A DNA stretch of 64,000 nucleotides, from NCBI GenBank assembly GCA_050084515.1, contig CM114271.1, positions 6,200,001-6,264,000 of the forward strand, in the 5' to 3' direction. Shown here one piece after another: positions 14,901 to 41,085 of the stretch (position 1 is the first letter of the stretch; each line of letters starts with the position of its first letter). Position numbers and translations under genes: made by a program. This DNA comes from Blasia pusilla. Taxonomy: Eukaryota. The notes beneath the pieces are model-generated. The model saw nothing but the letters and a program-made list of their open reading frames with translations, did not search any database and was not told the DNA's origin.

Positions 14901-17879
14901 TATATATATATATATATGTAATCCTATAATAACGTCCAATTACACTGAAAATACCTTAAGGCCCCTTTTTTTTTCCCATATAAGCTCCTTCTTATTTTAA
15001 TCTTTCCCTTCCCCTCTCTCTAGCAATGATTTGTCTCTATTATGGATTCCTTTAAGCACCTCTTAAATACCTTTGAATCTTCATTTGAATGTGCCATTGA
15101 AGATTATTTTGGATATACATAGATTTTCATTGGATCATAATTCATTAAAAAAATGCTTATGCTATTTGTGAAGCTTTGGAATCTCTGATTGAATTTAAGT
15201 TCCTCAAAATTACCATGTTTAATCTTGATAATGATGGAGTTTGGTTTAAATTTTATTTCGTATGAAAATTTTTGTATTACATTTATGCTCATCCAGAAAA
15301 TTTTGTGCTGAAATGTTTAGGAGCCAAAATAGTATCTTATTTCATTGATACAAATACGAAGAAGTTTCATTGTTGAGATACGATAAATTAAATATAAACA
15401 AAAAAGGTTATTTATGTATATGGAAGATTCTGTAATTAAGTAAAAATCTTGAGACCGTTCTCAAAGGCACTTTAATTGCAAAAAATAGACTTTCCTATTT
15501 GAAATTCACATTATCTCAAAATTTGCAGAAGTTTGTAATTAACCAAACCCATTTAGTTATTTTGGATGGGCAACTAACTCTCAAGTGGTCGTGCAATAAC
15601 TAATGTTGACTATGATGTCGCTCCGTACAACCCACACTAAAAACCTATACGAACCAATTCAAGTTCATGGCCTAATCCAACACTTGCTTGAAGAGAGTTT
15701 AATATATGTCATGTTCTAACTAATTATGTCATATGTCTTAGACTTCACAGGAAATTCATGGAGACGGTATTTAATTCTGAATATAGGAAAAGAATAGAGG
15801 AAGGTAATAGAAGAAGAAAGAGGATTATTTTTCTAAAGGGCTTGCATTTCAATAGGAGAGGGGAAAGAAAATAACAATGTTAAAAAAAAAGGGGTTTGAA
15901 AGGAGTTTTTTTAAGTGTTAAAATTTCAATATAAGAAGGAAGGAGAGATATCTGATTTTGAAAAGGGGAGTGGAAAAGAGAGAAAGATATAAATTTTCAA
16001 CAAGATGTGACTTGTCACATCTTACTTTGACGTAGGTAGAATTCTATCGCGTCGACGACATAGAGAGTCAAGGGGTCATTTGCTTGGAACTTTGTCTCGA
16101 GATGTCGGATGAGGTTGGCAACAGGTCTATTGTGTCGGGAACGTCATTTATGGCAATTTCCCTATTTTGGTTTTAGTCCTTCAGGTGACCCGTTGATCGG
16201 GTCAACGGTCACGTGGTAACTTGTGCACGCAGGTTACCGTTGGTAGGGCTATTATTGGGGGAAGAGCTTTTTGGCTCTTCCCAAGGGTATAAGAGTGAGA
16301 GAAATGGCTTTCTCAAGCCATCTTTCTCATGTTGAGCCTTAGGAGCGCCTCCCTTGCATAGACGAGTGTGGGTGTGTAGGAGTTAGGGTGCTAGTATCCG
16401 GATTCCTTCATAACAAAAGGTGGATGTGGTTCGATATGTCGATGTTAATTCACGAGTGGAGTTTTAGGCTGGATGAGCCATTTTTACTACTCTTGATTTT
16501 ACATGAGAAAGATGCGAGGGGCCAAAAAATTCGTTGTTCGCAAGTAGGCAACCGAGTTGCTTCAGTGGGGAGCCCTTGGAGACGCTAGTTGGCATTTGTA
16601 TGGTCATTTTTTTAGTTCAAGAGGCCGTGCGCGGAAGCGTAGTCCATTTTTCTTACATCTCGTTGGTGCGGGGTGATGGGAGACAACAATAGAGGATAGC
16701 GCGCGGTGTGGCAACGAGTGTCTGTGAGTGATTCGTCGACGGGTGAGTGGCAAGTGTCGGGAGAGAGACTATAGGGCTTGCAGCCGCCAGGGGGCTGTTG
16801 AGTGAAGACGGCTAAGTTGGAGCCGTAGCCGTTTAGGTTACTTGAGATTAAGATCGGACGGCTAGAAAGCCGTTACGTTGAGGAGGAGGTAGCAAGGTTG
16901 GGACAAGTCGGGTGGAGCAAGGTGGCCAATTGCGTGGCCGCCAAGTGTCACACAGAGAAGGATACGGAGCTAGGTGTGTGCAGGTCGAGGGACGTACGCA
17001 TAGGGATGCACACCCATGTCGAGTAAGAAGGTAAGAGGAGATGGCATCAAGTCGTGCGACAGCAAAGGTCGCAAAGTGAGGGAGTAATGAGGGATGGGTG
17101 GCCGCCATAGGGCAGCGTGCTACCCATGCACGAGGAGTGTGAGGTCGAGCCAAGGGTTTGGGAGGCACCAAGGCTCCATGGAGAGCCATGGCCAAAGGTA
17201 GCTAGAGGAGGGCTCGGGCAGTGAAGAGGAAGAGCCGCGGAGGGGAAATAGGCGCATAACGGGGGAGCTTTGAAGGAGATGGGAGGAAAGAAGAGCATGG
17301 GATGCAAGAGGAGCCATTAAGGCTCCATGGAGATGGGACACACAAAGCCATTATGGCTCTAGGAAGCCACATAGGGTGGCGGGCTGGGAGGTATGAAAGC
17401 TGACAACGTACAACCAAGTGCCAAGGTGTTTTTGGGAGGAAGGAAAGCGCGGAAGGTGGAGAAGAGACAGCCGACGGCTGGGCAATGGCGGACGTGGCTA
17501 AAGGCATGAAGGCGCCACATAGAAGCAAAATGTGGTAATGTGGTTGGATACTAGGTAACGTGGTAGGACTGGATGGAGTACAGTTGGTTGTGAAGTAGGG
17601 CCAGGGTATTAACCGTGGTCAGGCAGATACACTGTTGAGTGAGGTCTACATAGTTGGGGATCTGGACTTACTTGGTAAAGTAAGAGATGGTTGACCATTG
17701 ATCATGGTAAGTAACATGGTCACGGATTTCAGATTATAGTTGGGAGTTGCGACGGGATTCACTTGCACTTTGTTGACCGGTGTTGAGACGAGTGATCCAC
17801 ACCGATAGTTTGCGATTGAGTGTAAGAGGTGGAGACACACGCACCGATGCCGATAGGCAGTCTGCATCGGGGTAGTACG

Positions 17880-20190
17880 AGTAGGAGTAGTGGAGTGACA
17901 CGGAGTGGTGTGAGGTATCGAGGGGTTTTGAGTGAGGAACCACCCCGACTCCCATTCGTGGCCAGATCATCATCACTAGAGAGCGGGTCTAGTGTAGAGA
18001 TCCCAGATGGGGACAGTGATGCGTGGAGAGAGGTGGACGACATGGGCCATCGGGGCATGCGTCATTTCTCGGGTGCGGTTGATACCATAGATTTAGATGA
18101 CTTCATCTAGGAGTTCGACACGTGATGGGACTTCTAGGAGATACGGACCCCTACGCAGTTCAACCCTTTCATGGCATGGAAGGGTTGTTCCAGCACTTGG
18201 AGGATCCTGAATGGATGATTACATGGAGTTTTGATCTCTATACTCTGTAGAGATCGATGCCTGGAGGGTGTATTGGGCTCAAGGGTATATATCCACTAGT
18301 GGCTGCGAGGCGTATGATGGGATAGTGAGGGCGGAGAGACCTACACCATCAACCCTGGGACTAGGTGGAGAGGATGGCAGTGAGAGTGGTGAGGTGGCAG
18401 AGACCTCTCGTGGTAGAGGACCACCGAGTTTCAATCCTACAGTGGAGTTCTTCCAACAGTTGGGGAGGAGCTACTATGGCGTGCGGACCCACAAGCTAAA
18501 TAGTCTACAGGATTTTCACTGGAGATCGGGTGAGAGTCTTAGGGAGGCGTTCACGTGCATGCGACGGTTGATCGTTGCCACATATGGGGTGATTGAGGCG
18601 CAGTTAGTGCAATATTGGTACGGGGTGCTGGATGAGGAGCTACGGAGGAGAGTTCAAGATGCGATGTTGCTTCACAAGGCAAAGCCCACAATGAAGGTGG
18701 TCTTGGAGTTGTTTGAGCGAGTAGAGCTCAACATGAGTGATTAGGAGCCACCTAGGATGGCCTCACTAGAGTTGCAGTGTGATCATTGTCATCGATATCA
18801 TCACACTAGGGATAGGTGTTTTGATCTTCGTCGAGCGATACGTCTAGAGGTAGGCAAAGGGCCTGGGGGCGAGAGAGTTGGTGGAGATCGAGGGGTTGAT
18901 GATCGTAGTGGTAGAGTTCCATCACCAGTCAAGGGAGATGGAGGACGTGCACCCAATGCAACGTTCCTCACTCGCATCGATCAGTTGGAGTAGAGGATTG
19001 CTACCATGACAATGATGCAACCAGTGATAGGCACGGAGCCGAGAGTAGCTAGTGTGGCTCCAGCCTCCACGTCGTATGAGGATACGCGGGAGGACTATAC
19101 GGGGTTGAGGTTTATGTATAGTGCGGCTTAGGTTGAGGCTGCTGCGGCGGTGACTCGAGGTGCTGCGAGAGTAACCGAGCCATCGAGAGGTGGGGTTGAG
19201 ATTGATCCATAGGAGGGGATCGATGGGTGGCAGGCCAAGGTTCCCCAGTTGTTCACATTGTCAGAGGCACTACATACAGCGTCAACGGATGGTGCCTTGT
19301 GGACCGATAGTACCTATGGGTGAGACAGGTGCGTCCACGTCACGAGGATTTGGAGAGACAACTCCTATGCCGGTTTAGGAGGAGCCAGTGTCGACCATGT
19401 TGTTGGAGGTGGCTATTAGGGTGAGCCAGACTCTGTTGTTTTCCGCCATGGAGTTGGCGACATTGGGAGTTGGACTAGCGGAGGTGTTCCGGCTGGCCGC
19501 CACGTTGTGTGAGTGTGGAGAGGTGACTACCTATTTTTCAGAGGTAGTTGAGGAGGTGGTGGACTTGCCCTCGAAGTAGGTGCTTGGGACGTTCCCCATT
19601 GAGTCATGGCATGCGGCAGTGGCAAAGTTGGTAGATATGCCAACTAGGCGAGCGATAGAGCAAGCTATGATCACACCAAGTGTGATGTTGTTGGAAAAAC
19701 AAGCATGAGTGTTACGCTTGGTTAGTCCCACAGGTATGATGTACCATACACAACACATCCTACTTGATTCGGGACCGCAACCCTTGATGTTAGGGAAGGC
19801 AACGTGTTTAGCGTTGGGTTTACGGAAAGGCGACATCGAGCCTTATTCCTTTTAGATATAGACCTCTATTGGGGGCGTATCACCCACACAATACATGACT
19901 CGGCAGGATTTAGTGATTAGACTTCATCCATAGCATGAGTCGGATAGTGCGATGGTGCGCACTCGGGCGATTACGACATCGCAGAGTCGTATGATGTGTT
20001 GGTAGGGAGTACGGTGTTGTATCCTCTTGGTTTCATTCTGGACTTTTGGGAGGAGACCGTTTCTTATTGGCCAGGGTGGCGATTAGGTGATGGACGGGTG
20101 AGCCATCTACCGGTGCAGTTTCCAGGAGTTAGTGGTGATCGATCGCGTGAGGATACGGTGATCACGTTGGCAACATTCACAAGTGGTGTC
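17880..20190 (+). pseudogene. Degenerate gag-protease of the outer element; truncated just after the protease (no MTase, RT or integrase)
   Basis: TIDLDDFI; SYYGVRTHKLNSLQDFHWRSGESLREAFTCMRRLI (retrotransposon gag-like); CDHCHRYHHTRDRC knuckle; LLDSGPQPLMLG protease motif at ~19760; YDVLVGSTVLYPLGFILDFWEE. Many in-frame stops. Confidence 0.82.
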
Positions 20191-22799
20191 GCTATTGTGT
20201 GGTGTGTAGATATGACCAGAGATGTGGGTTGTGTAGCAATGTATATGCGTACAAAAACTGTCACATCTTACTTCAACATAGGTAGAGTTCTATCGCGTCG
20301 ACGACATAGAGAGTTAGCGGGCTGTTGGGTGTAACTTTGTCCCAAGATGTCGGATGAGGTTGGAAACAGGTTTGTTGTATCGGGAATGTCGTTTATGATG
20401 AATTTCCTATTTTGGTTTTAGTTTGTCAGGTGACGCGTTGACCGGGTCAATGGTCACCTCGTAACCTATGCACGCAGGTTACCGTTGGTAGGGCTATTTT
20501 TGGGGGAAGAGATTTTTGGCTCTTCCCAAGGGTATAAGGGAGAGAGAGATGGCTTTCTCAAGCCATCTTTATCATGTTGAGCCTTAGGAGTGACTCACTT
20601 AGATAGACGTGTGTGGGTGTATAGGAGTTAGGTTGTTAACATCCACATTCTTTCATAGTAGAGGGTGGATGTGGTTTGTCACGTCTTTTAGGATAGATCG
20701 GTGGGATCTAATAGAGCGCCTTCATGAGTAGTGGAGGACACGCCCAGTAGGTCGAGGGTGACCTGCTGAGGCCCTTGGAAACCTGAGATAGCAGGTTTCC
20801 CCTTCGTTTCGGCTCATTTGGAGCCATATTGAGGAACTTACTATTTTAGGTAAGTACCATTTTGAGTATATTATCGACTTACTATTTTTGGTAAGTGGCC
20901 CTTGACCTCCTACATCAGGTCAAGGAGGTGACTTGGGAGAATAGGTTACCATGGAGAGAGCTTGGGAGAGGAGAGGGGTATACCTCAAGGAGAGAGAGCT
21001 TGAGAGCTCATTCTCTCTTTGTTGAACCTCTTGGCATGAGGCGGCGGAGCTATGGTACCTTGCCTTGTGAGTGTAACCCAAGCCTCTCATTAGGAGAGTG
21101 GGTTTGGTTTGACATGAGAGAGAGTGCACACCTTTGAGAGCTATGGTGTGAGATGGTGGAGAGAGAGATTGGATCTTACTTTACAAAGAGAGAATGAGAG
21201 AGTGAGAGAGCTTCATGGGGGAGCTCGCTGGTCACTCCCTGTTTTTGCAGGTTGGGGACCGTGTTCCCCGTTCAGCGGCTCATGGGAGTGCTCACCGGAG
21301 CAAGGGGTGCTTTCATTACTCTTTGCATTTGCCGATTTTTCGTGTGGAAGAGTGGCGCGCGGAAGCGCTGCCCAATTTCTGATAGGGATTGAGTATGGGG
21401 GCGGTTGCCCCATGCTGGTGCTCTCGGGAACACCATGTAGCTTGCTGATATGTATTTTTACAGATGTTACATTTTCGTTGGGAGAAATCAGCGCAGGAGC
21501 GCTGCCGAATTTTGTGTAGGAGAAAGAGACATTGGGCTTTACGACAGTCCCCGTCATTTTTTACTGAAATGTTTGATTCTAAATATTTTTTGATGGTAGT
21601 GTAGATCGTGAAGCTGTGCACGCTGTGCAACAAACAGTGCACAAGTTGGAGTTGCGAGCAAAAAGTTATGGGCAATCTTGTAAAGCTGCCATTGCTAGGC
21701 GATTTTTAGGGTTAAATCGTGCAAACCCTAAATCAACCGCCACACCGGCGGCGGCCGTCGCCATCATAGTCACCGTCAACGGTCGACGGTCAACCGTCAC
21801 CGTCATCGGTCGGCCGTCACCATCAGCGGTCAACCGTCACTGTCAAGGGTCCACCGTCCATTGTCCACCCTTTGGGTGCCATTGTCGCCATTACGGAGTG
21901 GAGGGTCTTCCATGACGTTCGTTGATTCCTTGACTTGCGTCGCCACCACGTACTTTGTTTTGGCCGCCACCGTCATCGCAGTTTCTTCATCAACCAATGA
22001 AGGCAGATGACCTCCGGTTATGGTGTTTGAGTTTTGATTTCATGCTGCTATGTTGTGATTGGTAGCCGCTCGACGACGATCGAGTATCGTGTCGTGGCGC
22101 CAGAGCCGCAACGCCGCCCGATTGCCGCGCCCGTGTCGCTCGGGCCGCACCGCACCATCTCTATCGCGGAGCCGCACCGTCATTGTGGAGCGAGTGTGGG
22201 ATTATTATTGATTGAGGAGGGTATGCCGCCGAAAGTGCCGCATCCCACCATCGAGGGCCGCGGCCGTTTGTAGCCGTTCGCGTCGCGCCGCAACGCCGCA
22301 CCGTTCGGCGGGACCGCGCAGGTGTCTATCGAGGAGTTTTGAGCAGCATCATGACGGGAGGAGTATGACTTGCTGATTGGAGGAGTTGTCTCCACGATCG
22401 AGTTGGGGTCGAGATTTGCGATTCTTGAGGAGCGACATCGACATGTGTTCGGGTTACCCATTCTCGGTCCTTTACCCGCACGTGTGAGGGATTCTGGGAT
22501 TTATTTGGGGATATTGGGTGTGTGGATGCTGAGAGCATCATTTATATATGTGGTTTAGGGGACATAGACCTGTGTGGGATGTCCGGAGTTGAGGGTAGGT
22601 TGTCGATGAGATGATAGCCTGGTCGATTTGCCGCACCACGCCGCGTGTTGCAACACGTTACACGTCTCGGGGAGAGAGAGTGTAGATCGAGTGCCGCATG
22701 TTTGGGATGAGTGATTGAGGGATTCCTCACGAGGTTCAGAGTGATCGGGTGAGAGGGGCACGAGGGTCATCACGGAGTCTGTTCAGGACTTTGAGAGCC

Positions 22800-24750
22800 G
22801 AGGTGGTGAACCTAAGAGTAGCTCTAGAGGTTTTACGCGGAGTGGCGCGAGGTTTCGAGGGTCTCCACGTGAGGGACCACCTCAACCTCCTTCTGTGTCA
22901 TCGTCAGACGAGGGGGAGGGTGTAGAGGAGTTTGTGAGCACATCGCCACACATTGTGAGTGGTCCTACCGGTTGGGCGTCACGAGATGGACGATCGGGGT
23001 AGAGGACGCGAGGTTTTCAGGTGTGAGGCACGATTGAGTTGCACGCGATTTTATAGCAGAGTTTAGGAGTTGGTGCGACTCCCGTGGGCCAGAACTCTAG
23101 AGAGTTCAACCGTTCTTACAAAGATGGAACGGTATGTTCCAAAGATTTAGAGGGGGCGCCCATGGACGATTACCATGAGTTCTCTCGAGAGATATGCATG
23201 TGAGATCGAGGCGTGGAGGCTCTACTATGACCCACATTATGTGTCATGGACGGAGCGTTCCCAGATGAGGAGGAGGAGTCGAGAGGCTACTTCCTCTTCC
23301 ACTAGTGACGTTTTAGGAGGGGTCACTCGACGGGAGCGATTGCACCGTCTAGTCGGGTTCATCCCTGAGTTGAGTTCTTTTGAGTTGAGGGCGAGCTACC
23401 AAGGGGTACGGACGGAGAAGTTGCGGAGCATCCACGACTTCCAGAGGCGCCGGGTGAGAGTTTGCGTGAGGCTTACACTCGCTTGCGCCGGTTGATCAAC
23501 GTCACTCGGGGGGTGACAGAGGCTCAGCTATCCGGTCATGGTATGCGATCTTTGGCCGACCGACCCTGCGGACACGGAGTGCGGAGGGGGTGCTTCTTAT
23601 GAACACCTCCCCACGTTGAGATGTTTTTAGGACCGCCGAGAATATTGAGCGCAACATGGCGGAGGAGAGCGTAGCCACCATGGGTTCTGGGCGAGAGCAG
23701 TCACGATTGTCTGCACCACTTGTGTAGCAACGTGGACTCCGAGATAGGTCGACTATGGCACCACGAGCTCGGGGGGAGGATACCGAGAGGCCGTGCCACG
23801 AGACTGCGCCTTCATATGCGGCTCAAGGCAGCAGCCGCCTACTATTACTTGTTGGTCATGTGGTGGAGCCCATCATCAGCGCGATTGCACTCGCGGGGTC
23901 ATGGACGTGTGCCTCAAAGATGGAGGAGGAGATGGTGTCGCACCAGGAGGTTATCGGTGTGACTACCGCCGAGGTATGGTCATACACGCGCCAGGTGTTT
24001 TAGTTTACATCCTGAGTTACGCCTGGACCGAGGGCCGAGAGGGCACCAGAGCGAGTAGCCGGTCCGGTGGGCCTAGAGATCGTGCTCCAGGTGGTCCCGT
24101 TGGGGGACGAGGAGCTGGAGTTGCCCGACAGGGTGGTGGAGCGCCGTGGAGGAGGTAGAGTACCACCACCTAGACGCGCCGAGGGAGATGTCGGACGTGA
24201 GGCCGGGATGGTCGCTTTCGATACAACATGACTACATGAGCATATTGCCGCTATGGCATTGAGGTTACCCGATGCCGGATCTGTGGCATCGACATCATAT
24301 GGAAGCGTCGAGAGATCCGGAGGATCCTGGATGGATGCGAGGTTGCCAGATGGAGGCCGCCGCAGACAGACGCGTGGAGCAGCCGCAGAGTTGATCCACA
24401 GCGAGGGGAAGCCAGAGATGCAGACTAGGCTTCCTCAATCTTTCACGTTGTCGGCGATGAGGACCCCATCGATGGGTCCTCATCAAAGTTCCCAAGAGTT
24501 GGTAATGTTGTTGGTGTGCAAGCACGGAGGGTGATGGGAGAAGCGAAGTGCGACGACTCCTATTGTTGATGCTCGGAGAGGGCATGTGTCAAGCACGTTG
24601 TTGGGGCGGCCACCGTTGTGTACCGCACTCCTTTATTTTCGCTTCCGATGTTGTGACGTTGGGAGGTACGCCCGCCGAGGTTTTTTTTCGGCTGGCCGCT
24701 TCACTATGTGAGCGTGGAGTTGGAGTTCCTGCATCACATTCGTGAGGTGA
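22800..24750 (+). pseudogene. gag region of the inner element (frameshifted as assembled)
   Basis: LRASYQGVRTEKLRSIHDFQR (homologous to the outer gag); CCHC zinc knuckle CWSCGGAHHQRDC at ~23850-23890. Boundaries approximate. Confidence 0.75.
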
Positions 24751-24784
24751 TTGCAGAGGAGGTGATGGACCTGCCCTTGAGCGG

Positions 24785-25340
24785 ATGCTCGGGCCGCCCA
24801 CGCCGATTCATGGCAGTGCGGTCGCTAGGATGGCGGAGATGCCCGCTAGACCCGCGATAGAGCGTGCCATGGCTTCTCCTGGTGTTGTGTTGCTGGATAA
24901 CCGAGGAGAGGTCTTCCAGTTGGTGAGTCTTGGAGGTAGAGCTTTTAGTCCGCAGCGCGTCTTGTTGGATTCAGGAGCGCAACCCTTGATGTTGGGGAAA
25001 GCGTCATTCAGAGGATTGGGCTTGACGAGAGCCGATGTGGAGTGTTGTCCATTTCGGATACAGACATCCTTGGGTGGAGCGAGTACCACACAGTATATCA
25101 CCCGACAGGAGGTCGTGGTGAGGATTCGCCCGGGACATCCTACAGATGAGTCCGTGGTGCGCGCCAAGGCGATAGTGACTGATGCTGAGTCCTACGACGT
25201 CTTGGTTGGTGGAGCAGTGTTATACCCGATGGGGTTTTCCCTGGATTACTGGGAGGAGTCAGCGTCCTACAGACCAGGATGGCAGTCAGGTGATGGGCGC
25301 CTTAGCTCATTACCCGTTCGATTCACAGGTGCAGTGATCG
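24785..25340 (+). pseudogene. Retrotransposon aspartic protease domain
   Basis: RVLLDSGAQPLMLG active-site motif (~24960) and distal SYDVLVGGAVL motif. Confidence 0.88.
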
Positions 25341-25674
25341 AGCAATGGCGATGGCAACCTTAGCAGCATTTAGCAGTGCCATCACTTGGCCTAGTGATTT
25401 GATTGAGGGACATGTCCATGCAGAGGATACTCCCGTTCCTGACATTTCTATGGAGAGGAGTGTTATGGTAGCTGCATCATTCCGTGGAGGAGAGGTGCCG
25501 CTGTGGGGCTCGACTGAGGAGCTTCAACGATTGGCAGATGCGCACGTGCAGACCGCGTGGAGCGAGGCGTTTGCACCAGAGCGTGACGGGTCTGAGGAAC
25601 CCGAGGTAGCGGGGAGTGCTACGATGACACCCTTGGATACTACACCCATTGTGTGGTGTACCCCGGAGGAGGGT

Positions 25675-26600
25675 ATTCGAGTGTTAGATCTCTTTGGAGG
25701 GATTAGCACCGGGTTAGCTCTTGCTTTGGCAGGAGTGCGAGTACAACAAAGATTTGTATGTGGAGAGTGATGATGTTGCGAGGCGCGTCTCACTACGACA
25801 TGTGGCGCAATTACGCCTACGTTTTCCCGACTTATTGTCTGCGTCCGCATTACAGGGGATACCAGAGTTCCCTACCGAGGGATATTTTGTTGTTGGGGGC
25901 GCAGGACTTAGAGCGGGTAGGGACCATTGATTTGGTCATTGCCGGTTGGCCATGTCGGCCAATCGAGAGCCGGACGAGGCAGCTGGTTGGTCGACACTCG
26001 GTCCAGGTTTTTTGGGAGATGTTGAGGGTCTTACGGCGAGTTGCAGAGCACCGCCTCATTCTCCGGCCTACATTCGAGAATGTGCCGATCTTAGAGACTC
26101 AGTGTCACGGGTCGTGATGAATGCTCATCAGGTGCGTGCCTGGATCGGCCCAGAAGTGTTCTTGGATGCGGCGAGTGTAGGTTCTAGAGCCCATCGCCCG
26201 CGTCTATGGTGGACCAACTTGGTGCCCCATGCGGTGTTATGGAGGGCGTATGCAAGAGTGGAGCGCCCCTCCCTTTGTTAGTGGATTCCATTCTGGATCC
26301 AGTCGCCGATCACACGCAGTGAGGCACGATGATCGACCACCGCCGACCGGGTCAGGGGTAGGCAGGCCGCGGCGCCTTGCCCACGTTTGTGAGTTTTCCC
26401 GCTTCCTATGCATACAAGGAGGCCGGTCTTGGCTTGGTTTGGGATGACCAGGTTCAGCGGTTGGTGGAGCCCAACGCCGACGAGAGAGAGCGAGCAATGG
26501 GATTTCCCACAGGAGTGACGGTAGTACCATCAATGTCAGAGGCATCACGACGCCATGTCTTGGGTCAAGCGATGGACCTGAACTGCTTGACATGGATCTC
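25675..26600 (+). pseudogene. DNMT3-like C5 cytosine DNA methyltransferase domain embedded in pol (split over several frames)
   Basis: Motif I IRVLDLFGGISTGL (25675); II YVESDDVA; III PRDI; IV IDLVIAGWPC (PC at 25950-25955) then GQSRAG...DTRS; VI ENV (26076-26084); VIII LDAASVGSRAHRPRLWWTNL (26162-26221); IX EPNADERERAMGFPTGVT (26467-26520); X RRHVLGQAMDL. All are in canonical I-to-X order. Confidence 0.9.
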
Positions 26601-26939
26601 GCCTTGGGAGTGCTCGAGCGGCGTCGTATGAGATCGTGATAGATCACGGCCGGTTGCGCAGTGAGCCCCATGCCTACCGAGACGGTGGAGGCAGTGGCTG
26701 GGGGCGAGACCCGAGGAGATCTACGCACCAGGGAAGATCGGGAGAGACACACTTGGACTTCTTGGGATGTTTTGAAGGTACGCAAGGAGATGATAGCCAC
26801 AGCATCGAGTGTGGTTTCGGCAATCGCACGTGGAGGAGATCAGAGTTTGCGCTGGCTGCAGGAGAGCGGCCGAGTGTTGTTGTTCGAGACGGGTTGCACC
26901 ATAGCAACCACCGATACCCGCCACGGAGAGTCCTACCGT

Positions 26940-28370
26940 AGTCACGATGGAGACTTGGGAGCCGATATGGGCCCTAAGTTGACAGGAGGAGAGTGGCGCC
27001 GAATACATCAGTTCCTTAGGAGTTATAGGAGCCGCTGCGTTTAGCATGGAGGATTTGGGTACGTTGAAGGGACCGGGATCCGCATTGAGTTGTCGAGTGA
27101 TATGCCGATCTTCTTCCGCGACCCTACAGTGTCTGATGATATGGAGAGGGATCTGATTGAGTAGGAGCCAAGACTTGGTGAGCAGACTAGTGGAGATGTC
27201 GCATGGGGAGTATGCATCCGCCACTTTGTCATGCCCGCCAAGAAGGATGTGCATGGCAACCGGACGGATAGGCGGATGTGTGGGGATTACCGACCTATCA
27301 ATCGGCGCATTTAAGTCCGATAGGTATGCCATGCCCACCCTTGAGGAGATCTTTGATGCGATTGGTCACGCAAAGGTCTTGATTCATTGATTTTGAAAGT
27401 GGATACCATCACCGCCTATCGATTGAGGACAAAAAAGACGGCATTTTGGGGCATTGATCCTCACGGGAAGGATTGTTTGTACCAGTGGCGGTTCTTACCA
27501 TTTGGGTTAAAGAACACCCGGCTGAGTTTCAAAGGGTCATGGATAGGATCTTGGCTGGTTTGGATTATTCTAGGTGTTATATTGATGACATCGTAGTCTT
27601 TAGCGCCACCACGGTTGAGGAGCATGAGCAACATCTAGAGGAGGTGTTTCGACGATTGCAATTACATGGGTGAAGCTACATCCGGCAAGTGCAAGTTCTT
27701 CTACGACCAGATTGAGTACTTGGGTCATACGATATACCCAGGGGGCCTTGGTGTTCAAAGACGAAGGTAGAGGCTATCTCATGCATTCCACGCCCCTGAG
27801 ATGTGAGCCGTGTTCGCAAGATTCATGGGATTGGCAAACTTCTATCGGCGATCGTCAAGGGATTCGGGATTCGATTATGGCCGCTGACCTTGCTCACCAA
27901 GGTGGATCACGAGTGGCACGGGGATGAGCAGAGCGAGCATTTCGATTGCTCAAGAACAGGTTGACGCCCGCACCCATCTTGAGGAGACCGATCAGGGGCG
28001 CCCTTTCCGATTGCACACGATTGGAGCATGTTGGGGCTTGGAGCAAGTGCTCACCCAAAGATGATGATGAGGTTTGTGGTGGCTTACGCTAGCCGCTCGA
28101 ACAACGCTGCAGGCGAAATCTGATTCAGTATGAGGGTGAGTGCTTGGTCATGCGTGTGGGTCATCGCGCATTTTAGGTGTTACTTATTCGGCAACCCTTT
28201 ACCATCATCATCGATCATCAACCACTGAAGTGGTTGATGGAGTCCGACAAGCTTACAAGGAAGCTTGCGAGATGGGCTCTGTTGTTGCAGGAGTATGATT
28301 TTCAGGTGGTACATAGACGTGGAACGCTCAACCAGGATGCAGATGGGTTGAGTCGTAACCCATGCCCGAA
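26940..28370 (+). pseudogene. Reverse transcriptase and RNase H of the inner Gypsy element (frameshifted as assembled)
   Basis: RMCGDYRPIN, DRYAMPTLEEIFDAIG, KTAFWG, YQWRFLPFGLKN, PAEFQRVMDRILAGL, CYIDDIVVFS; RNase H VVAYASRS, DHQPLKWL, LARWALLLQEYDFQVVHRRGTLNQDADGLSR. Confidence 0.93.
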
Positions 28371-28539
28371 GTCGAGATGCGACTGGAGCTCGATGGCATG
28401 GAGAGAGTGATGAGGAATTGGTGCCAGGATGGCACGCGTCAGCCTATTTAGGCATGTTGGCTATGGAGAGCTAGAGTGTGGAGACTTCGATGGCGAGGTC
28501 TAGTGGAGAGTCTTTGGATCCCGAGGCCAGTGAGGACAC

Positions 28540-29800
28540 GACAAGTGGCCGAGATATTCATGATGATGGAGTAGTCTTAGAGTACCTTCGTACTGGCAGC
28601 CTTGCGAGCACCATGGATGCTAGAGAGCGGGATCGGATCCTACAGCGGGCCAGACGGTTCCGTTGGGAGGGGACACATGTTTTGAGGGTTTGGGAGGATG
28701 GCAGAGTACGCGTAGTGCCGCATCCTTTGCAGAGAGCACGACTAGTGCAGCATGCCCATGAGGAGTTGGGTCACTTTGGGGTGAAGCGGACGTATAGCTT
28801 GCTCCAGATTCAGTATTGGTGGCGAGGCATGCATGCAGACCGGCGTTCGGCAGCTTTGTTGCCAGTGCATGGTGTGTGATCGGGTCCGAGCATCGTTCAA
28901 TGCTCCGACTCACGCTTGCATCCATTACCAATCATGGGCTTAGGGTATAGATGGAGTTTGATTTTGCAGACCTTTGCCCTTGACGGAGCATCACGATCGT
29001 TATGTGTTGGTGATGGTGAGCACTTCTCGAAGTGGATCGAGTTGGTTGCATTGCCTGACAAAGCAAGTGAGGGAGTAGCTTATGCCTTCCTTGAGAGAGT
29101 GCAGAGTCATTATGGCACACCAGTTGAGGTGTTGACAGACCAGGGTACCGAAGTTTAGCGGTGAGTTCCAAGCCTTGTGTGATCGGGGCCGATCGACCAC
29201 CGCGACGACCAGCGAGATCATCCCGAGGCGGATGGATTAGCGGAGAGAGTTGTGCAGACGGTGAAGAGGGGTTTACGCAAGTATGGCTTGCGAGAGAGGT
29301 CACCTAGAGATTGGGACCTCCGATTTGCCATGGTTGGCGATGGGATACTGATTCGTGACGAGGCATCCTTAGCGTCTTTTTCACCATACTTGCTACTTTA
29401 TGGCGAGAGCCGATTTACCTGCGGCCATTCGCCGAGATCTTTGGTGAGGTGTCTGAACCTTGATGACCCAGATGTATGGGTGCGAGGATGTTCTCGTGAG
29501 GGTGAGTTATTTCGGAGAGTGATGCCCATGGCGTTCGAGAACTTGGCGATTGCACAAAGATTGGGATACGTTGAGGTATGCGACTATTCCAGGTGGTGGT
29601 TATCGACCAACAATCCGAAGGTTTCATCAGGGAGATTATGTCTATTTGCAGCAGACGGCACCGACGACGTTGGATGTGACTGCAGGGCGCACTATCCTGA
29701 GAGTGCGTGACATTTTGCCATCGGGTGTTTCTCTTCGGAGGGACGCGATGGTATGGTATGGAAGGACCATGTGCATAATTGTGCGCCATGTCACCTTCCT
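28540..29800 (+). pseudogene. Integrase (HHCC zinc finger plus DDE core) of the inner element
   Basis: HAHEELGHFGVKRTYSLL...YWWRGM...CxxC; LHPLPIMGLGYRWSL; EHFSKWIELVAL; VLTDQGTE; ADGLAERVVQTVKRGLRKY. Confidence 0.92.
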
Positions 29801-29854
29801 AACATTGATGGTACAAAGAGATCCGAGCTTAGTAGTAGTTCCTGCAGCTTGCAT

Positions 29855-29993
29855 TGTATGTTGTGTGGTTACGCCGTAGTGCGCCACAATGCTAGTCTGT
29901 GATGGGTGTTCGAGAGGATGGCATATGGCATGTTTGACGCCACCTCTCACTAGGGTTCCTCAAGGACGATGGATGTGTCCCATATGTACATAG
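29855..29993 (+). pseudogene. PHD finger (C4HC3) at the C terminus of the pol polyprotein
   Basis: CMLCG...(one frameshift)...[36 protein letters not shown], stop at 29991-29993. Confidence 0.9.
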
Positions 29994-31237
29994 AGAAGAT
30001 AGTTCTACATTCCGACTTGTGTCTATGACATGGATGACAAGGAGGCGACTAACGATGGGGCCACATGAGCACTCGGCCTTCTTGCTCTTAGCGTCCGAGA
30101 GATGTATGTCATGGTAGGTAGGGATAGATGGCTATCTGGAGTTAGAGGGACCTAATCACCAGCTAGGGGGGCGATTGGAGATATTTTGGTTCTTCTTGTC
30201 TCGTTGTTTGGATGCCATGAGTTAGCATGGGATCATGCGTGTTTCTGTGTGTGTTCGGTGACAGCGATGTATGTTGTGTAGCGATGTGTATGCGTCGGCG
30301 GTTGTCACGCGTCTTTTAGGATAGATCGGTGGGATCTAATAGAGCGCCTTCATGAGTAGTGGAGGACACGCCCGAGAGAGGTCGAGGGTGACTGCTGAGG
30401 CCCTTGGAAACCCGAGATAGCAGGTTTCCCAAGCGTTCGGCTCATTTGGAGCCATATTGAGGAACTTACTATTTTAGGTAAGTACCATTTTGAGTATATT
30501 ATCGACTTACTATTTTTGGTAAGTGGCCCTTGACCTCCTACATCAGGTCAAGGAGGTGACTTGGGAGAATAGGTTACCATGGAGAGAGCTTGGGAGAGGA
30601 GAGGGGTATACCTCAAGGAGAGAGAGCTTGAGAGCTCATTCTCTCTTTGTTGAACCTCTTGGCATGAGGCGGCGGAGCTATGGTACCTTGCCTTGTGAGT
30701 GTAACCCAAGCCTCTCATTAGGAGAGTGGGTTTGGTTTGACATGAGAGAGAGTGCACACCTTTGAGAGCTATGGTGTGAGATGGTGGAGAGAGAGATTGG
30801 ATCTTACTTTATTGGAGATATTTTGGTTCTTCTTGTCTCGTTGTTTGGATGCCATGAGTTAGCATGGGATCATGCGTGTTTGTGTGTGTGTGTTTGGTGA
30901 CAGCGATGTATGTTGTGTAGCGATGTGTATGCGCACGACAGGTTCGATATGCTGATGTAGATTCATGAGTGGATTTTTAGGTCGGGTGAGCCATTTTTAC
31001 TACTCTTGATTTTTTTGTTGGGTCTCGATGTATATATGTGAGTTTGTTTGGTTTGTGTGGATCTACCCGTATTTTGGGGAAGATCGATGTTGTGTGGTGT
31101 GTAGATGTGACCAACGATGTGGGTTGTGTAGCGATGTGTATGGGCACGACAGATCTCATAAGATTTTTTCTTATAATAGTTAATTTCAAATAAGAGATGG
31201 GAGGAAACATATAGTTGAATTTTCAAAGGGGAAGGGA

Positions 31238-32195
31238 TGTCATGTTTGTTATAGCAAAATGACGAGTATCAATATGATATTTTTGAGGAGATGGTAGATC
31301 GCTTCCAAAAGGTCGAAGATGATTTGATGAGGACTAGAATAATACTTATTACCCCATGTTTTGGGCTTATTTGGAGTTGTACTAAAGAACTTACCATTTT
31401 AGGGAAGGTCCCTATTTTGAATATAGTTAACCTTTCATTTAGGAAAAGTGGCCCTTCATCCACTATCGTAGGTTAAGGTTGAAAAGTTTATATGCGTGCA
31501 CGTTACTAAAGAGAGAGCTTGGAGAGAGAGAGAGAAGGGATGTATCCAAGGAAAAAGAGTTTGAAAACTCATTCTCTCTTTGTTGAACCTTAATTTTTAA
31601 GGCAACGGAGCTATGCTTCTCCTTGCCTTTTGAGAAATCCAAGCTTCTTATTAAAAGAGACAAAGTTAATTTGGTTTGATATGAGAATGAATGAATGAAT
31701 GAATAGATTTATTGTCCACAGAGACCCCACAAGGCCATGGGACTTAGTTTTGAGACTTAACAAAAAGTTTGGAGAGAGATCAAGCACAAGCAAGGGCCTA
31801 AGAGGTCATCTAAGCCAGGTGAGTGTCCCTATTTTCACATAGCTATGCAAGAATTTAGCAATCTGAATCTGATTCTGCCTAGCCATGAATGCGGGCACTT
31901 TGGGAGTCTGGTGATCAAAGAGATCCGGGAAGTCAAGCTTACTGTGACTATGAAAGGTGCAATTGGAGAGGTTATGATGTTCATCATCAATAAGCCCCAA
32001 GTTGCAAAATCTACATAAACTGTCCTCCTTTTTCTTCAGTGAGAATTTTCCTTTCTCAACCTCAAGGTCAATAGAGCCACATCTGAATTTCGCTAATGTA
32101 TGACGTAACTTAGTGGGAATGGGGGCAGAGATGTAAGAGGCTTGCTAAATGGATCTGCAGGTGTTCATGAGGGTGTGATAGTGCCTCATGAACAC

Positions 32196-34856: not shown

Positions 34857-35353
34857 TGCAGTTAACCTCCGTCCATAATCTGCGCAATTTCTCTCTAGAG
34901 ATGCATCCAGTTTCTTTCCCTCGGATTGGCTTTCCTCCATTGTGGTCAATGCTTTCGGGGGAACTTCACAATTCCGTAGGAGTAGATTTCGCGGATTTTT
35001 CCTGTCAATCGGCATTCGGCAGTGGCATGTTTACCGCTGTGTCTCGAGAGCGTCGATGGGACTGTATGACACTTCCGGATTGGTAGGAGTTAATGCTTGG
35101 GATCGTTTCTTACCGCAACTGCGAAGAATAGGACCGTAAAATACCACACGTCCACGACTTTTTCTGATCTGATTCTCATGGCTGGAGTAGCCGATTAGGC
35201 ATTCTGTACCGGTCTATCATGTGCTTGCTTGTTCTGATTTCGTTTGGTCTACGGTTGCGCTTTGGATAAGTTTTCGCTTCTTAACTGGCTGCATGTTATT
35301 TCCGCAGGTATGAATGTCATCAAGATCGAAGATGAACACTCTCAGACGTGAAG

Positions 35354-37474
35354 ATGAGGAATAGGTTGCTTCACACCCGGACTCTTTCGAGAGTGGTGGA
35401 AGCTCAAAGAAGGCTTATTGAAATTCGGGACAGCGAGGGGTGGATCGGCTGTTTAAGAGCTGGCAACTCCACTGGGAAATCTTTGTGTCGCACTTGGCTT
35501 GGTTCTCACAGCGTCGATCAATTCTCGAGCAACGTCGACCGGTGCAGAGTGGTGGGTTTAGGGCTTAGGGCATTTCGCAGGACGTTTTCATGGATGGTCG
35601 CTGCGCCAGATCTCACAAGGGGTTGTTTACTGGGGGATGAATATTGGAATAAACCTTTCGGAAGTGAGATATATGACAGGAAAGAGTCGAACAGGAAGGG
35701 ATCGCATTGGAGGAAGGAAGATCCGGGGTACCAAGAGGCTAAGAGTATCGGTAGTGTGTGCAATGTGCTACAGAGATGGCAGTGGACGAAAGAAACAGAG
35801 ATAGCCCTTACGAAGTTGAGTATCAAGCTCACCCCATACTTGGTCTACGAGGTATTGAAACGCCAACGTGATCCAGACATGGCATTCAAGTTTTTTGAAT
35901 GGTCCAAGCGGCAACCAGGATACAAGCATGAGACGGCAGTGTATACCCGGATGGTGATGATTGCAGGGGCATCCAAGAAGTATGAGGCTGTGAAGGGCTT
36001 GGTGGCTGAGATGGAAACCGAGGGTTGTGAGAGAAATCTCGCCTTTTACAATGCTCTGGTTGATTTTTTTTCCCAGGCTAGGATGTTGGATGAAGCCCTT
36101 CAAGCCCTTGAAACTATTAAATCATGTGGCTGGTCGCCCACATTCTTCACATACAAGTGTCTTGTTCATTCAGCTTTGAAGTCGGGGAATGTTAGAAAGG
36201 GTGCTGAAATGTACATGGAGATGATGCAAGCCGGGTTTATGCCTGACAACACCACCGTGAACATGTTAATTGACGCATTTGCCAAGACAGGCCAAATGAA
36301 GACAGCCTGCAATATCTTTCGGGAAATGGTGGATAGGGGTTGTGTACCAGACGTTTACACATACACCATTGTGATCCGGAGTCTTGGTCAAAAGGGACAC
36401 ATGAATGCAGCCATGAAAGTCTTCAGGGACATGATAGAAGCAGGCTGTAGACCTACTTCGTACACATACCACAGTTTGATCCATGCCTTTGGCAGGGAGG
36501 GGAAAGTGAACGAGGCAGTACAGCTAATCAATGAAATGGTCAACAAGGGCTATCAACCAGGTATTATAACCTATAATATACTCATTGATGCGTATGCGAA
36601 GGCAGGTGATTGGGATGGAGCAATGGAACTTTTTGAACGAGCTAAGGGGATGGCTGATGCTGTCACTTACAATAGCATGCTGGATAGGGCTGTTAAGAAA
36701 GGAGATGTTCATGCTGCCTCCCAACTTTTCGAGCAGATGGGTGCCACAGGGTGCATTGCCAACAAAGTTACGTATGCAATTTTGATCCGGGGCCTTACCA
36801 AAGCTGGCAAGGTGGAGGAAGCATGTAAGCTGTATGAAGAGATGAAGCGCCTGAATCTGAAGCCAGATGCCACCATCTTCAACAACATGATTGATTGCCT
36901 TGGGAAGATGCGGCTCATTGATGATACTCTGAAGCTTTTTAAAGAAATGAAGGATCATGGTGTACGTCCTGATATGTGTACATACAATACATTGATTAAT
37001 CGTCTATGTAAAGCAGGTCAAATAGACATGGCATCAAAAATTGCAGAGGAAATGGCAGAAGCTGGTTGTATACCAGGTCGAGTTACGTACAATTGCCTAA
37101 TCAACAGTTTGGGGAAAGGAAGGAAAATTGATGCAGCTTGCAAACTGTTTCTAGAAATGCAGCAAAAGGGTGCCAAACCTGATGTAGTTACATACACCAG
37201 CCTCATTGATGGTTTTTTCATTGCAGAGAAAATTGACTCAGCCCTATATATGTTCCAAGAAATGAAAAAGGTAGGCTGTCGCCCAAACGTCGTAACTTAT
37301 AATCTCCTCATAGATCACCTCATCAGGCAAGGTCGAATTGCTGCGGCTTTGAACTTCTGGCAAGAGATGAAAGAGAAGGGCCTTACTCCTGATGAGATCA
37401 CAGAGACCATCTTAGGTCGGATTCCACTGGAATGCAGAGGTGGGCAGACAACAAATCAAGAGGGCAAGAAATGA
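35354..37474 (+). CDS. P-class pentatricopeptide repeat protein (~706 aa), single coding exon
   Basis: Long ORF with tandem 35-aa PPR motifs (PDVYTYTIVIRSLGQKG, PDMCTYNTLINRLCKAG, PNVVTYNLLIDHLIRQG), an N-terminal AFKFFEWSKRQPGYKH motif and no E/DYW domain. First ATG at 35354; a likely 5'UTR intron acceptor at ~35308. Confidence 0.95.
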   Translation: MRNRLLHTRTLSRVVEAQRRLIEIRDSEGWIGCLRAGNSTGKSLCRTWLGSHSVDQFSSNVDRCRVVGLGLRAFRRTFSWMVAAPDLTRGCLLGDEYWNKPFGSEIYDRKESNRKGSHWRKEDPGYQEAKSIGSVCNVLQRWQWTKETEIALTKLSIKLTPYLVYEVLKRQRDPDMAFKFFEWSKRQPGYKHETAVYTRMVMIAGASKKYEAVKGLVAEMETEGCERNLAFYNALVDFFSQARMLDEALQALETIKSCGWSPTFFTYKCLVHSALKSGNVRKGAEMYMEMMQAGFMPDNTTVNMLIDAFAKTGQMKTACNIFREMVDRGCVPDVYTYTIVIRSLGQKGHMNAAMKVFRDMIEAGCRPTSYTYHSLIHAFGREGKVNEAVQLINEMVNKGYQPGIITYNILIDAYAKAGDWDGAMELFERAKGMADAVTYNSMLDRAVKKGDVHAASQLFEQMGATGCIANKVTYAILIRGLTKAGKVEEACKLYEEMKRLNLKPDATIFNNMIDCLGKMRLIDDTLKLFKEMKDHGVRPDMCTYNTLINRLCKAGQIDMASKIAEEMAEAGCIPGRVTYNCLINSLGKGRKIDAACKLFLEMQQKGAKPDVVTYTSLIDGFFIAEKIDSALYMFQEMKKVGCRPNVVTYNLLIDHLIRQGRIAAALNFWQEMKEKGLTPDEITETILGRIPLECRGGQTTNQEGKK

Positions 37475-39830: not shown

Positions 39831-40570
39831 CTGCTCGGGTTTTTGTTGTTCTTCCTAGCTATATCTCATGTTTTGATGGAGTTCTTTCCGAATCTAGAGG
39901 CATGAAGAGAATGACAATGGCATGAACTAACCTTCGTGACATCAGGAAAGGAATTGTTGTCTTTGAGTCCCACGCTTTGCACATCCGATTATGGGTTCTC
40001 CCATCTTCTTTTACCCATGTTTGTCTTCTTTGTCTCCTCCAATCACCTTATTTTCCTACAGCAGGATTCAAGGGAAGCAGAATGGTCTTGAATGGGCAGA
40101 AATCCATTCCCACAAACTTTGCTGATATGGGGACTCAAATCTGCCCTTCGCAGGAACCTTTGAGAAATTTTTACTTACAAAGAATCATTAGATGCAAAGA
40201 TACGGCAAGTATTGCACAATACTTGCCGTATCTTGACTCTATCCAAGAGTATCAAATGAATTTGACTCTATCCAAGAGAGTGAGCCCATGGGAACAAGTT
40301 TGCTAGATAAAGCAGTATGGAACAACCTATCACATCAAACACTAAAAAGAAACATCATAGGGAGTAGGCCCATGGGTGTGGGCATTGGAACATACCTTAG
40401 CGAATATATCCTCCCCACACTTTTCCTTTGGCCTACTTTGCCCATCTCGTTGAGTCTAGGGGTCGATTTCTTCTAGAGTCTCCCGGAGTGCCTAGGTTTT
40501 CCACCTTACTCCCTTTGTGAACCAGTTTATGGGACCCCATTTGGATGGAGGACGTGAACACGATCTCTCT

Positions 40571-41085
40571 GGGGATGAGTTTGTGGGGTCCCCTTGGGTG
40601 AAGGTAGAAAACACAAAGACACCACCATATCCTCTCTCTCTCTCCCTCTCGGGATGAGTTTGTGGGGTGCCCTTGGGTGAAGGTAGAAAACACAAAGACA
40701 CCACCATATCCTCTCTCTCTCTCTCCCTCTCGGGATGAGTTTGTGGGGTGCCCTTGGGTGAAGGTAGAAAACACAAAGACACCTCCATATCCTCTCTCTC
40801 GGGATGAGTTTGTGGGGTCCCCTTGGGTGAAGGAAAAACAAACAAAGACACCACCATACACCATATCCTCCCTCTCTCTCTCTCTCTCTCTTGGGATGAG
40901 TTTGTGGGGTGCCCTTGGGTGAAGGTAGAAAACACAAAGACACCACCATATCCTCTCTCCCTCTCTTGAGAGAGGGAGAGAGGATATGGGACCCTAAACC
41001 CATGAGCCCTGGTTGGGTTCGGTTTTGGAGGTGCCCTTGGGTGGAGATAAGAAACACAAAGACACGAGCATAACCTCTCTCACTC
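40571..41085. repeat. Minisatellite: five ~70-90 bp units plus one diverged unit, each ending in a variable (CT)n tract
   Basis: gggatgagtttgtggggt(g/c)cccttgggtgaaggtagaaaacacaaagacaccaccatatc(ct)n starts at ~40572, 40651, 40722, 40801 and 40893. Confidence 0.92.

Follow-up and report, generated by a model that had tools for sequence, protein, structure and literature searches.

The window analysed here is a stretch of 64,000 nucleotides of Blasia pusilla (GenBank assembly GCA_050084515.1, contig CM114271.1, positions 6,200,001 to 6,264,000, forward strand); all coordinates below refer to it, and all features of the element under study lie on its + strand. Positions 20677-30940 are read as one inserted copy of a Ty3/Gypsy-type retrotransposon, which belongs to a family found in bryophytes and streptophyte algae and equipped with a DNMT3-type cytosine-5 DNA methyltransferase (DNMT). 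We assign this reading, which covers the identity and the anatomy of the element, a probability of about 0.85. An earlier evaluation of the sequence alone, in the following called the original prediction, had placed such an element in a land-plant context, and with a liverwort as host this context stands.

Anatomy of the inserted element

The element is 10.3 kb long and stands out by its G+C content, which amounts to 52-57% across approximately 20.7-30.9 kb compared with 30-45% in the background of the window. The G+C-rich stretch is bounded by direct repeats of 510 bp. The borders of the element are base-exact: the 5' end reads TGTCACG and the 3' end CACGACA, giving the termini TG...CA. The insertion is flanked by a target-site duplication of 4 bp, GGTT, with a left copy at 20673-20676 and a matching right copy at 30941-30944; the uninterrupted paralogous site at 16395-16470 contains a single GGTT. 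From 5' to 3' the layout comprises the repeat A1, a leader, gag, protease, DNMT, an in-frame UAG, reverse transcriptase (RT), RNase H, DDE integrase, a PHD finger and the repeats B1, A2 and B2.

The DNMT domain extends from 25630 to 26598 with its motifs I-X in linear order. It was delimited with a profile hidden Markov model (HMM) of 357 positions, built from 194 relatives, with which every stop-to-stop piece in the six frames (2745 in total) was searched. Matches were obtained in five pieces only, all of them on the + strand and colinear, which together cover HMM positions 4-342: 25630-25761 (HMM 4-52, E 2.7e-6), 25739-25867 (HMM 45-87, E 5e-7), 25821-26096 (HMM 72-170, E 7.5e-12), 26051-26272 (HMM 155-231, E 9.7e-21) and 26368-26598 (HMM 266-342, E 2.7e-33). 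The original prediction had described motifs I to X of a cytosine-5 methyltransferase in order on the sense strand between protease and RT, and every motif named there was located, namely FGGISTG (25693-25713), GWPC (25944-25955), ENV (26076-26084), AHRPRLWWTN (26189-26218), ERERAMGFP (26482-26508) and LGQAMD (26560-26577), with LLDSGA of the protease upstream (24962-24979) and YIDD of the RT downstream (27578-27589). The proposed coordinates, 25675-26600, had to be corrected, as the domain begins approximately 45 bases earlier. No single frame contains the whole set of motifs, as the domain switches frame at least six times and makes use of all three + frames. Because these breaks split the domain, Pfam PF00145, the domain check named in the original prediction, gave a sub-threshold match on single window pieces (E 0.019). 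The pieces are colinear, with no gap larger than the variable region, which is consistent with intronless coding.

Upstream of the DNMT, gag is present in pieces in three frames (23011-24046), as found by tblastn and phmmer with the relatives P0152 and Mp_4g09160. A zinc-knuckle-like sequence, CWSCGGAHHQRDC, was read from the open reading frame (ORF) at 23850-23888; Pfam zf-CCHC matches relatives and gave no match on the gag piece of the window. The aspartic protease region (24617-25336), which contains LLDSGA, is 50% identical to the protein P0001 over 240 amino acids, and Pfam protease families match the window weakly (E 0.05-0.17). ORF1, which comprises gag, protease and DNMT, ends with an in-frame stop in the context TAG CAA CCA (26902-26910), which is shared with relatives. 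The stop is followed by the RT, in pieces and including YIDD (27160-27940; Pfam RVT_1 E 4.9e-7 on 27458-27670), the RNase H, likewise in pieces (27931-28470; Pfam RT_RNaseH E 1.3e-9 on 28177-28407), and the pieces of a DDE integrase with H2C2 zinc-binding, core and C-terminal parts, which were identified by Pfam (28505-29872; Integrase_H2C2 28475-28879, E 9.2e-11; rve 28880-29158, E 8.9e-5). The C-terminus of the integrase carries a PHD finger (29880-29990; Pfam PHD E 6.7e-10; score 39.3 bits, cut-off 24). The succession of RVT_1, RT_RNaseH, Integrase_H2C2 and rve after the protease bears out the earlier assignment to the Gypsy retrotransposons.

The repeats follow the plan A-coding-B-A-B and are not simple long terminal repeats (LTRs). 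The 5' terminal repeat A1 (20677-21183), which begins with TGTCACG, and its direct repeat A2 (30303-30811) are identical in 501 of 512 aligned columns. They differ by five substitutions in approximately 506 bases, a substitution divergence of about 1%, and by six gap columns, all in the first ~130 bases. Repeat B, a segment of 120-130 bp on both sides of A2, occurs as an internal copy B1 (30174-30302) and as the terminal copy B2 (30812-30940), which ends with CACGACA; the two are 96.7% identical over 123 columns. A polypurine-tract-like run, AGGGGGG (30163-30173), lies directly 5' of B1. The junction between the end of A and the start of B is present in many DNA contigs of two runs as well as in RNA reads of two runs. 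An independent element on a metagenome contig (L030) has the same plan, with A1 at 1676-2017, B1 at 10238-10349, A2 at 10350-10691 and B2 at 10693-10804, the same purine run 5' of B1, the same TG...CA ends and its own 4-bp target duplication, AAGG. Among the relatives the repeat plan was confirmed only in L030: the intact L019 has no terminal repeats in its contig of 9.3 kb, and the element of L002 ends at the edge of its locus. The split repeats point to an unusual route of regenerating the element ends.

The long leader (21184-22980; 1.8 kb) contains no Pfam domain, and at the nucleotide level it does not resemble the shorter leaders (1.15-1.2 kb) of L030 and L002. A tandem repeat of 20-27 bp with three to four copies lies within it at 21769-21858.

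The insertion is recent, since A1 and A2 differ so little in substitutions, and its target was the terminal repeat of an older, related element with gag and protease only. This older host element spans 16013-20676 and 30941-31013, and it was its 3' terminal repeat that received the insertion. The identity between the two terminal repeats of this older element (16013-16431 and 20259-20676) is 85.7%. Its gag and protease are retained (18973-20226, with stops) and directly followed by a B-like end at 20189-20247; having no DNMT, RT or integrase, the older element looks like a non-autonomous derivative. Farther downstream, a B-end-like segment at 31084-31142 is 88% identical to 20189-20247 and an A-like segment at 31353-31686 is 70% identical to A2; both are remnants of a third related element. 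With three related elements the region is therefore a nest of this retrotransposon family.

Relatives of the element and type of its methyltransferase

The best fragment of the window led to one protein, P0001 (782 amino acids), whose open frame runs from gag through the protease into the DNMT. A full protein scan with P0001 gave 4175 proteins at E<=1e-3, of which 202 reached E<=1e-30; the DNMT domain of P0152, used as a second query, yielded 108 proteins. Named relatives of the latter search are 14 clusters of Marchantia polymorpha and one sequence each of Calypogeia fissa, Sphagnum fallax and Mesostigma; a relative from Closterium was found in a separate search. There is no vascular plant among the named relatives, though the database holds many vascular plants, and no sequence of Klebsormidium nitens among the named matches. 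The relatives from M. polymorpha are publicly annotated as hypothetical proteins (e.g., Mp_4g09160, Mp_6g11220, Mp_2g26090), and the UniRef name of Mp_8g17980 begins with "DNA (cytosine-5". In annotation, such Marchantia relatives could be mistaken for methyltransferase genes of the host.

The 251 DNMT-bearing matches comprise 74 of class A, in which the DNMT follows the protease or precedes the RT, 127 of class B and 50 with the DNMT alone. In class B the DNMT is located between RNase H and integrase (RT-RNaseH-DNMT-integrase-PHD; e.g., P0013, P0201, P0216, P0227). Its named members are from the chlorophytes Tetradesmus deserticola and Hariotina reticulata, and no paper on this architecture was found. 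The coding plan of class A is best seen in intact relatives. In L019, an ORF1 of 1369 amino acids with protease and DNMT is followed by a single TAG and then, in the same frame, by an ORF2 of 1047 amino acids with RVT_1, RNase H, integrase and PHD finger; L022 and L010 likewise have a same-frame ORF2 after the stop. P0152 (1280 amino acids) is a complete gag-protease-DNMT frame. As ORF1 is uninterrupted in L019 and P0152, the DNMT is encoded without introns. Two Marchantia proteins, P0168 and P0175, carry the DNMT ahead of RVT and RNaseH, and some lineages fuse all domains in one frame, as in P0019, a single ORF of 2188 amino acids with CCHC, protease, DNMT, RVT, RNaseH and integrase. The position between protease and RT given in the original prediction was thus correct, with the modification that in intact relatives the DNMT ends ORF1 and an in-frame stop stands before the RT. 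In these intact relatives the methyltransferase is also in frame with its neighbors, since they carry gag-protease-DNMT as one ORF and the RT in the same frame after the stop.

A nest of related elements, as found here, might favor the explanation that a host DNMT3 gene lies in or next to a Gypsy element by chance, either nested or by a one-off transduplication. A repeat search of the window, however, showed that the DNMT segment is not flanked by repeats or duplications of its own. Moreover, the order of protease, DNMT and RT occurs in the 74 class A relatives, which derive from many sources, and in single ORFs (P0019, ORF1 of L019) as well as in the 14 Marchantia clusters. The recurrence of this order in independent relatives already refutes a chance association, whose probability we consider negligible, and the presence of gag-protease-DNMT-RT in intact ORFs of many of them agrees with the earlier view that the domain is no passive one-off insertion.

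An in-frame stop followed by CAA or CAG, 225-324 nt past the DNMT domain, was found in 19 of 29 related loci (TAG in 14, TAA in five) by a relaxed rule, which considered no more than the first two in-frame stops of each locus; the strict motif UAG-CAR-YYA is in frame in only 6 of 33 sequences. UAG-CAR-YYA is the read-through context of plant viruses, and the stop context of the element resembles it. From this sequence context we infer that RT, RNase H, integrase and PHD finger would be made by read-through of the UAG and that the DNMT would be part of the abundant Gag-protease product.

In the tree of DNMT domains, a supported branch has all 56 rows of class A on the same side, where they are joined by four rows of no assignable class, a single class B row with a long branch, and the window. 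The window itself belongs to a clade of 17 rows with support 100, in which it is accompanied by Calypogeia, ten Marchantia rows, Sphagnum and four further rows. Its terminal branch of 0.46, compared with 0.003-0.24 for its neighbors, is expected of a damaged copy. The persistence of the lineage from streptophyte algae into land plants, which had been proposed in the original prediction, fits the hosts Mesostigma, Closterium, liverworts and Sphagnum and also the shared A-coding-B-A-B plan. The S. fallax sequence (P0228, BDL97_09G086500) forms an unresolved polytomy with liverwort sequences, has a short branch of 0.15 and is 57% identical to the integrase core of the window; its placement may be due to slow evolution or to transfer between bryophytes.

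For the type of the methyltransferase, a family profile of 12 sequences was compared with the PDB. The highest matches were DNMT3A (1.5e-20), DNMT3C (2e-19) and DNMT3B (5e-19), followed at a distance by the tobacco DRM (NtDRM, 1.3e-9), M.HhaI (1.7e-8), Arabidopsis DRM2 (5e-7) and DNMT2 (~1e-4); DNMT1 and chromomethylase are not among the 60 PDB matches listed. The best PDB match of P0001 is again DNMT3A (3e-9), in a colinear alignment which includes the AHR.R..W.N motif. An AlphaFold model of the Calypogeia relative has a pLDDT of 80-94 over most of the DNMT domain, and among the Foldseek matches listed for it, to rank 49, there are only DNMT3A/B/C, with target TM values of 0.75-0.83 to catalytic-domain chains. 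DRM chains align via their C-terminal part only (profile positions 298-426 to DRM residues 225-352), because the catalytic motifs of DRM are circularly permuted. The linear order and this partial alignment agree with the earlier statement that the domain is not permuted in the manner of plant DRMs. The DNMT3-like type claimed at the same time is borne out by sequence profile and predicted fold, and the assignment as a DNMT3-type cytosine-5 methyltransferase, closest to DNMT3A/B/C among solved structures, is supported by both the profile and the structural model. A DRM identity was rejected, since the motifs of the window run from I to X.

Pfam gave no match to the reader domains PWWP or ADD in P0001, P0152, P0164, P0019 or ORF1 of L019. 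Protist and algal DNMT3s are likewise described as having no companion domains in the accessible text of MBE 2025 msaf176. The cellular DNMT3s of animals (DNMT3A/B/C) have the same catalytic fold and linear motifs I-X, and plant DNMT3s such as that of Physcomitrium are cellular members of the same fold class, as far as the available part of Yaari et al. (2019) goes. The DNMT of the element differs from these cellular enzymes in that it has no PWWP or ADD, is intronless, is part of a Gag-protease polyprotein and occurs in many copies.

The kind of element is already known from an alga. KnitGypsy-Dnmt3 of K. nitens is a Gypsy-borne Dnmt3 (de Mendoza et al., 2018, Nat Commun 9:1341; cited here from the accessible parts of the text), and the two reports named in the original prediction, Gypsy-borne DNMTs in Klebsormidium and retrotransposon-borne DNMTs in dinoflagellates (there Symbiodinium), are both found there. 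With the present element, KnitGypsy-Dnmt3 shares the Gypsy domain set, an intronless, non-permuted Dnmt3-type DNMT in the coding region and a streptophyte host. Its repeats are "the same as that of a DIRS retrotransposon", i.e., A-coding-B-A-B, the plan of both the window element and L030. An alga is the host there, a liverwort here, with relatives in Marchantia, Calypogeia and Sphagnum. The split into ORF1, UAG and ORF2 and the PHD finger are features of the present element which the accessible text on KnitGypsy-Dnmt3 does not mention ("PHD" occurs 0 times), and the words Marchantia, liverwort and moss are absent from the same text. Later papers, in the parts available, cite the work with the term "streptophytes". 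A search of the literature, which excluded supplements, Repbase, Dfam and REXdb, gave no description in land plants, and the supplements of de Mendoza et al. (2018) and of MBE 2025 msaf176 may list land-plant sequences. The additions made here are that the DNMT belongs to ORF1 and precedes a conserved stop, that the integrase carries a PHD finger, and that an element with split repeats shows integrase-type insertion; these features may or may not hold for the Klebsormidium type too.

SymbioDIRS-Dnmt3 of Symbiodinium also has a Dnmt3-type DNMT in a retrotransposon polyprotein and A-coding-B-A-B repeats. In contrast to the present element with its DDE integrase, TG...CA ends and 4-bp duplication, it belongs to the DIRS elements, has a tyrosine recombinase and makes no target duplication. 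Its Dnmt3 domains methylate CG de novo in yeast, and KnitGypsy and SymbioDIRS Dnmt3 are interpreted as independent acquisitions (de Mendoza et al., 2018, accessible text). Membership of the Blasia element in DIRS, PAT or Ngaro was rejected, as Integrase_H2C2, rve and a target duplication are present and only the split direct repeats, defined for tyrosine-recombinase elements in PMC4157794, are shared. Canonical Ty3/Gypsy LTR elements share with it the TG...CA ends and a short target duplication, here of 4 bp; its repeats, however, are split as A...B-A-B, and no primer-binding site was recognized in it. EpiLTRs and DAM-carrying LTR elements (bioRxiv 10.64898/2026.05.21.726589, accessible part) similarly combine an LTR element with a DNA methyltransferase and a chromatin reader; these are, however, adenine methyltransferases, a DNMT4-like DNMT and a chromodomain, and the elements are described as absent from Streptophyta and distinct from the streptophyte Gypsy-DNMT3.

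The green-algal class B elements have a related DNMT, with 35 columns in common, a PHD finger after the integrase and Gypsy-type RT, RNaseH and integrase; they differ in the position of the DNMT between RNase H and integrase, and the DNMTs of the two classes lie on opposite sides of the supported branch. Chromoviruses are Ty3/Gypsy elements with a chromodomain on the integrase and, to our knowledge, carry no DNMT. The present element resembles them in its Gypsy backbone and in the histone-reading module at the C-terminus of the integrase. Membership was rejected, since a PHD finger is found where the chromodomain would stand. No paper on a PHD finger in the integrase of LTR retrotransposons was found for green algae.

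State of the copy, expression and selection

From gag to the PHD finger the window copy consists of 32 chained pieces with 26 frame changes and five same-frame breaks, and as assembled it is dead. This damage consists almost entirely of indels, while the decayed metagenome copies L001-L031 show the opposite pattern with 47 in-frame stops and 14 frame changes in the DNMT domain; together with the young age of the insertion, this speaks for assembly errors, in which case the real copy would be intact or nearly so and possibly active. The host genes of the window, however, are unbroken. At 12 listed indel sites (of 12 plus 180 further ones), the window state makes up 75-98% of the DNA depth in run X1, i.e., the majority at all 12 sites with an alternative of 2-25%, and from ~1% to 100% in run X2 (alternative 0-99%). 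As the family is too repetitive, reads are not assignable to a single copy. At least the listed indel states are thus common to many genomic copies, as would be the case in a defective subfamily that proliferates. At seven of the 12 sites in both RNA runs, and at two more in X22 alone, most RNA reads show the alternative state, and such a defective subfamily alongside other, transcribed copies would explain the pattern. We consider assembly errors rather improbable, although of all alternatives to our reading they deserve the most attention.

The stops of L001-L031 derive mostly from CGA to TGA (18) and CAG to TAG (8) changes. Such a spectrum is as expected of a deamination signature at methylated CG and CHG, judged from the substitutions.

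The family is present in high copy number in the host species, as 284,495 contig pieces of DNA run X1 align to the element. Two RNA-seq runs of the same species gave 3385 (X22) and 3453 (X23) reads, which cover the whole element with a depth of 13-41 over the DNMT bins. In both runs the first mate on the - strand exceeds that on the + strand in 30 of 30 bins, which in most stranded libraries indicates sense transcripts.

All 168 relatives compared at this position have the catalytic Cys (52/52 of class A and 116/116 of class B); the Glu of ENV is invariant in 55/55 and 116/116, respectively, and 35 columns are conserved to at least 90% in both architecture classes. When the window is compared with the first 12 related loci, pN amounts to 0.26-0.29 with pS at 0.74-0.81, i.e., saturated. 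This pN alongside saturated synonymous sites, the invariant residues, the retention of the DNMT in an unchanged position across Mesostigma, Closterium, liverworts and Sphagnum and the existence of intact ORF1s all argue against the DNMT as a neutral passenger, i.e., an old capture in decay with no role in the life cycle. For a passenger speak the pN/pS of ~1 among near-identical copies, the broken state of most copies in the window and the metagenome loci and the lack of activity of the K. nitens enzyme in yeast; a near-neutral ratio among close copies is, however, normal for dead copies of any retrotransposon. We regard a mere passenger as very unlikely. The trend of pN/pS fits selection on active lineages combined with neutral decay of inserted copies and yields no clean estimate.

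Several points have to be held against our reading of the element and its methyltransferase. No obvious primer-binding site was seen after A1, and the present copy, as assembled, cannot make the methyltransferase. The DNMT3 assignment refers to solved structures, with no plant DNMT3, CMT or MET1 in our own tree, and this tree is unrooted and was built from matches to a query of the same family. The sense direction of the RNA presupposes the usual stranded library chemistry. Reads at least 99% like the window copy number only 14 of 3385 (X22) and 30 of 3453 (X23), so that the expression signal is that of the family, possibly of related families, and not of the locus. Among close copies pN/pS is 0.94 at pS<0.05, 0.76 at pS 0.05-0.1 and ~0.45-0.57 at pS 0.1-0.4; because the closest copies are near 1, selection is visible only over long distances, where the saturated pS defies quantification. 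For read-through, the conserved stop context is the sole indication. KnitGypsy-Dnmt3 could be compared by its description only and with no K. nitens sequence, and the accessible text did not give the position of its DNMT in the polyprotein. In yeast, no methylation was obtained with the K. nitens domain, a result which its authors call inconclusive (de Mendoza et al., 2018, accessible text), and the activity of Gypsy-borne DNMT3s is unproven.

The unbroken host genes mentioned above are found downstream of the nest. A P-type PPR gene at 35336-37474 (+) has a single uninterrupted frame of 712 amino acids. A TOM1-like VHS-GAT gene at 49028-50257 (+), which lies in a local G+C-rich island (57%), is intronless with a single frame of 409 amino acids; its product (49067-50254) is 80% identical to that of M. 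polymorpha, 85% to that of M. paleacea (over 80% of the length), 75% to Calypogeia, 76-78% to Riccia and ~60% to lycophytes, mosses and seed plants. These identities mark the host as a liverwort other than those compared. Exon-like frames at the start of the window, 2270-2809 (-) and 6-605 (-), contain matches to a TFIIIC B-block-binding domain (E 4.3e-12) and to DUF7646 (E 1.4e-11) and are probably parts of one host gene. The PPR gene and the TFIIIC subunit fit a plant genome. Three overlapping long frames at 40433-41198 (-), which are repetitive and rich in Arg and Glu, suggest a tandem repeat array and not a gene.

Possible role of the element-borne methyltransferase

According to the mechanism we propose, intact members would translate Gag-protease-DNMT as the main product, and occasional read-through of the UAG would add RT, RNase H, integrase and PHD finger. 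The protease would free the DNMT, whose catalytic residues are presumed to be kept by selection and which would use S-adenosylmethionine to methylate the element's own double-stranded cDNA or the new insertion, while the PHD finger of the integrase would read histone H3 tails and guide integration. The step of self-methylation by itself, read from sequence, is a possibility that we put forward tentatively and with odds clearly below even.

The enzyme might instead have a target other than the cDNA of the element, namely RNA, as in DNMT2, or host chromatin, or it might have a structural role in the particle. Methylation of RNA has been raised for a LINE-borne DNMT, and several possible roles are listed (de Mendoza et al., 2018, accessible text). 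Encoded in the Gag-protease ORF, the DNMT would be produced in Gag-like amounts, and no PWWP or ADD reader stands alongside it. On the other hand, sequence and fold are those of the DNA-methylating DNMT3A/B/C, with DNMT2 at ~1e-4 compared with 1e-20, and SymbioDIRS-Dnmt3 methylates CG in yeast DNA, although it is an unrelated element (de Mendoza et al., 2018, accessible text). Another target thus appears unlikely, though less so than a passenger without any role.

Taken further, the proposed self-methylation would describe a living lineage as old as the streptophytes, with Mesostigma, Zygnematophyceae, liverworts and mosses as hosts, which makes its DNMT3 as a tail of Gag-protease in Gag-like amounts, probably within the particle. 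Methylation would then reach the cDNA ahead of PHD-guided integration or in its course, so that new copies would be "born methylated", and as the family is high-copy and transcribed in liverworts, the enzyme could contribute measurably to de novo methylation in the host genome. We consider this wider scenario doubtful, more so than the methylation step alone and also more so than errors in the assembly.

Cytosine methylation is the main weapon of the host against transposons, so it is paradoxical that a transposon should bring along a de novo methyltransferase. For streptophytes, the published examples we found are those of Klebsormidium. Features relevant to a mechanism are the DNMT in the Gag-protease frame ahead of a leaky-looking stop, the PHD finger of the integrase, and split repeats combined with insertion by an integrase. 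Abundant, transcribed and partly intact elements in liverworts move the question to a tractable system, as the hosts include Marchantia polymorpha, for which genetics, methylomes and mutants with derepressed transposable elements are available.

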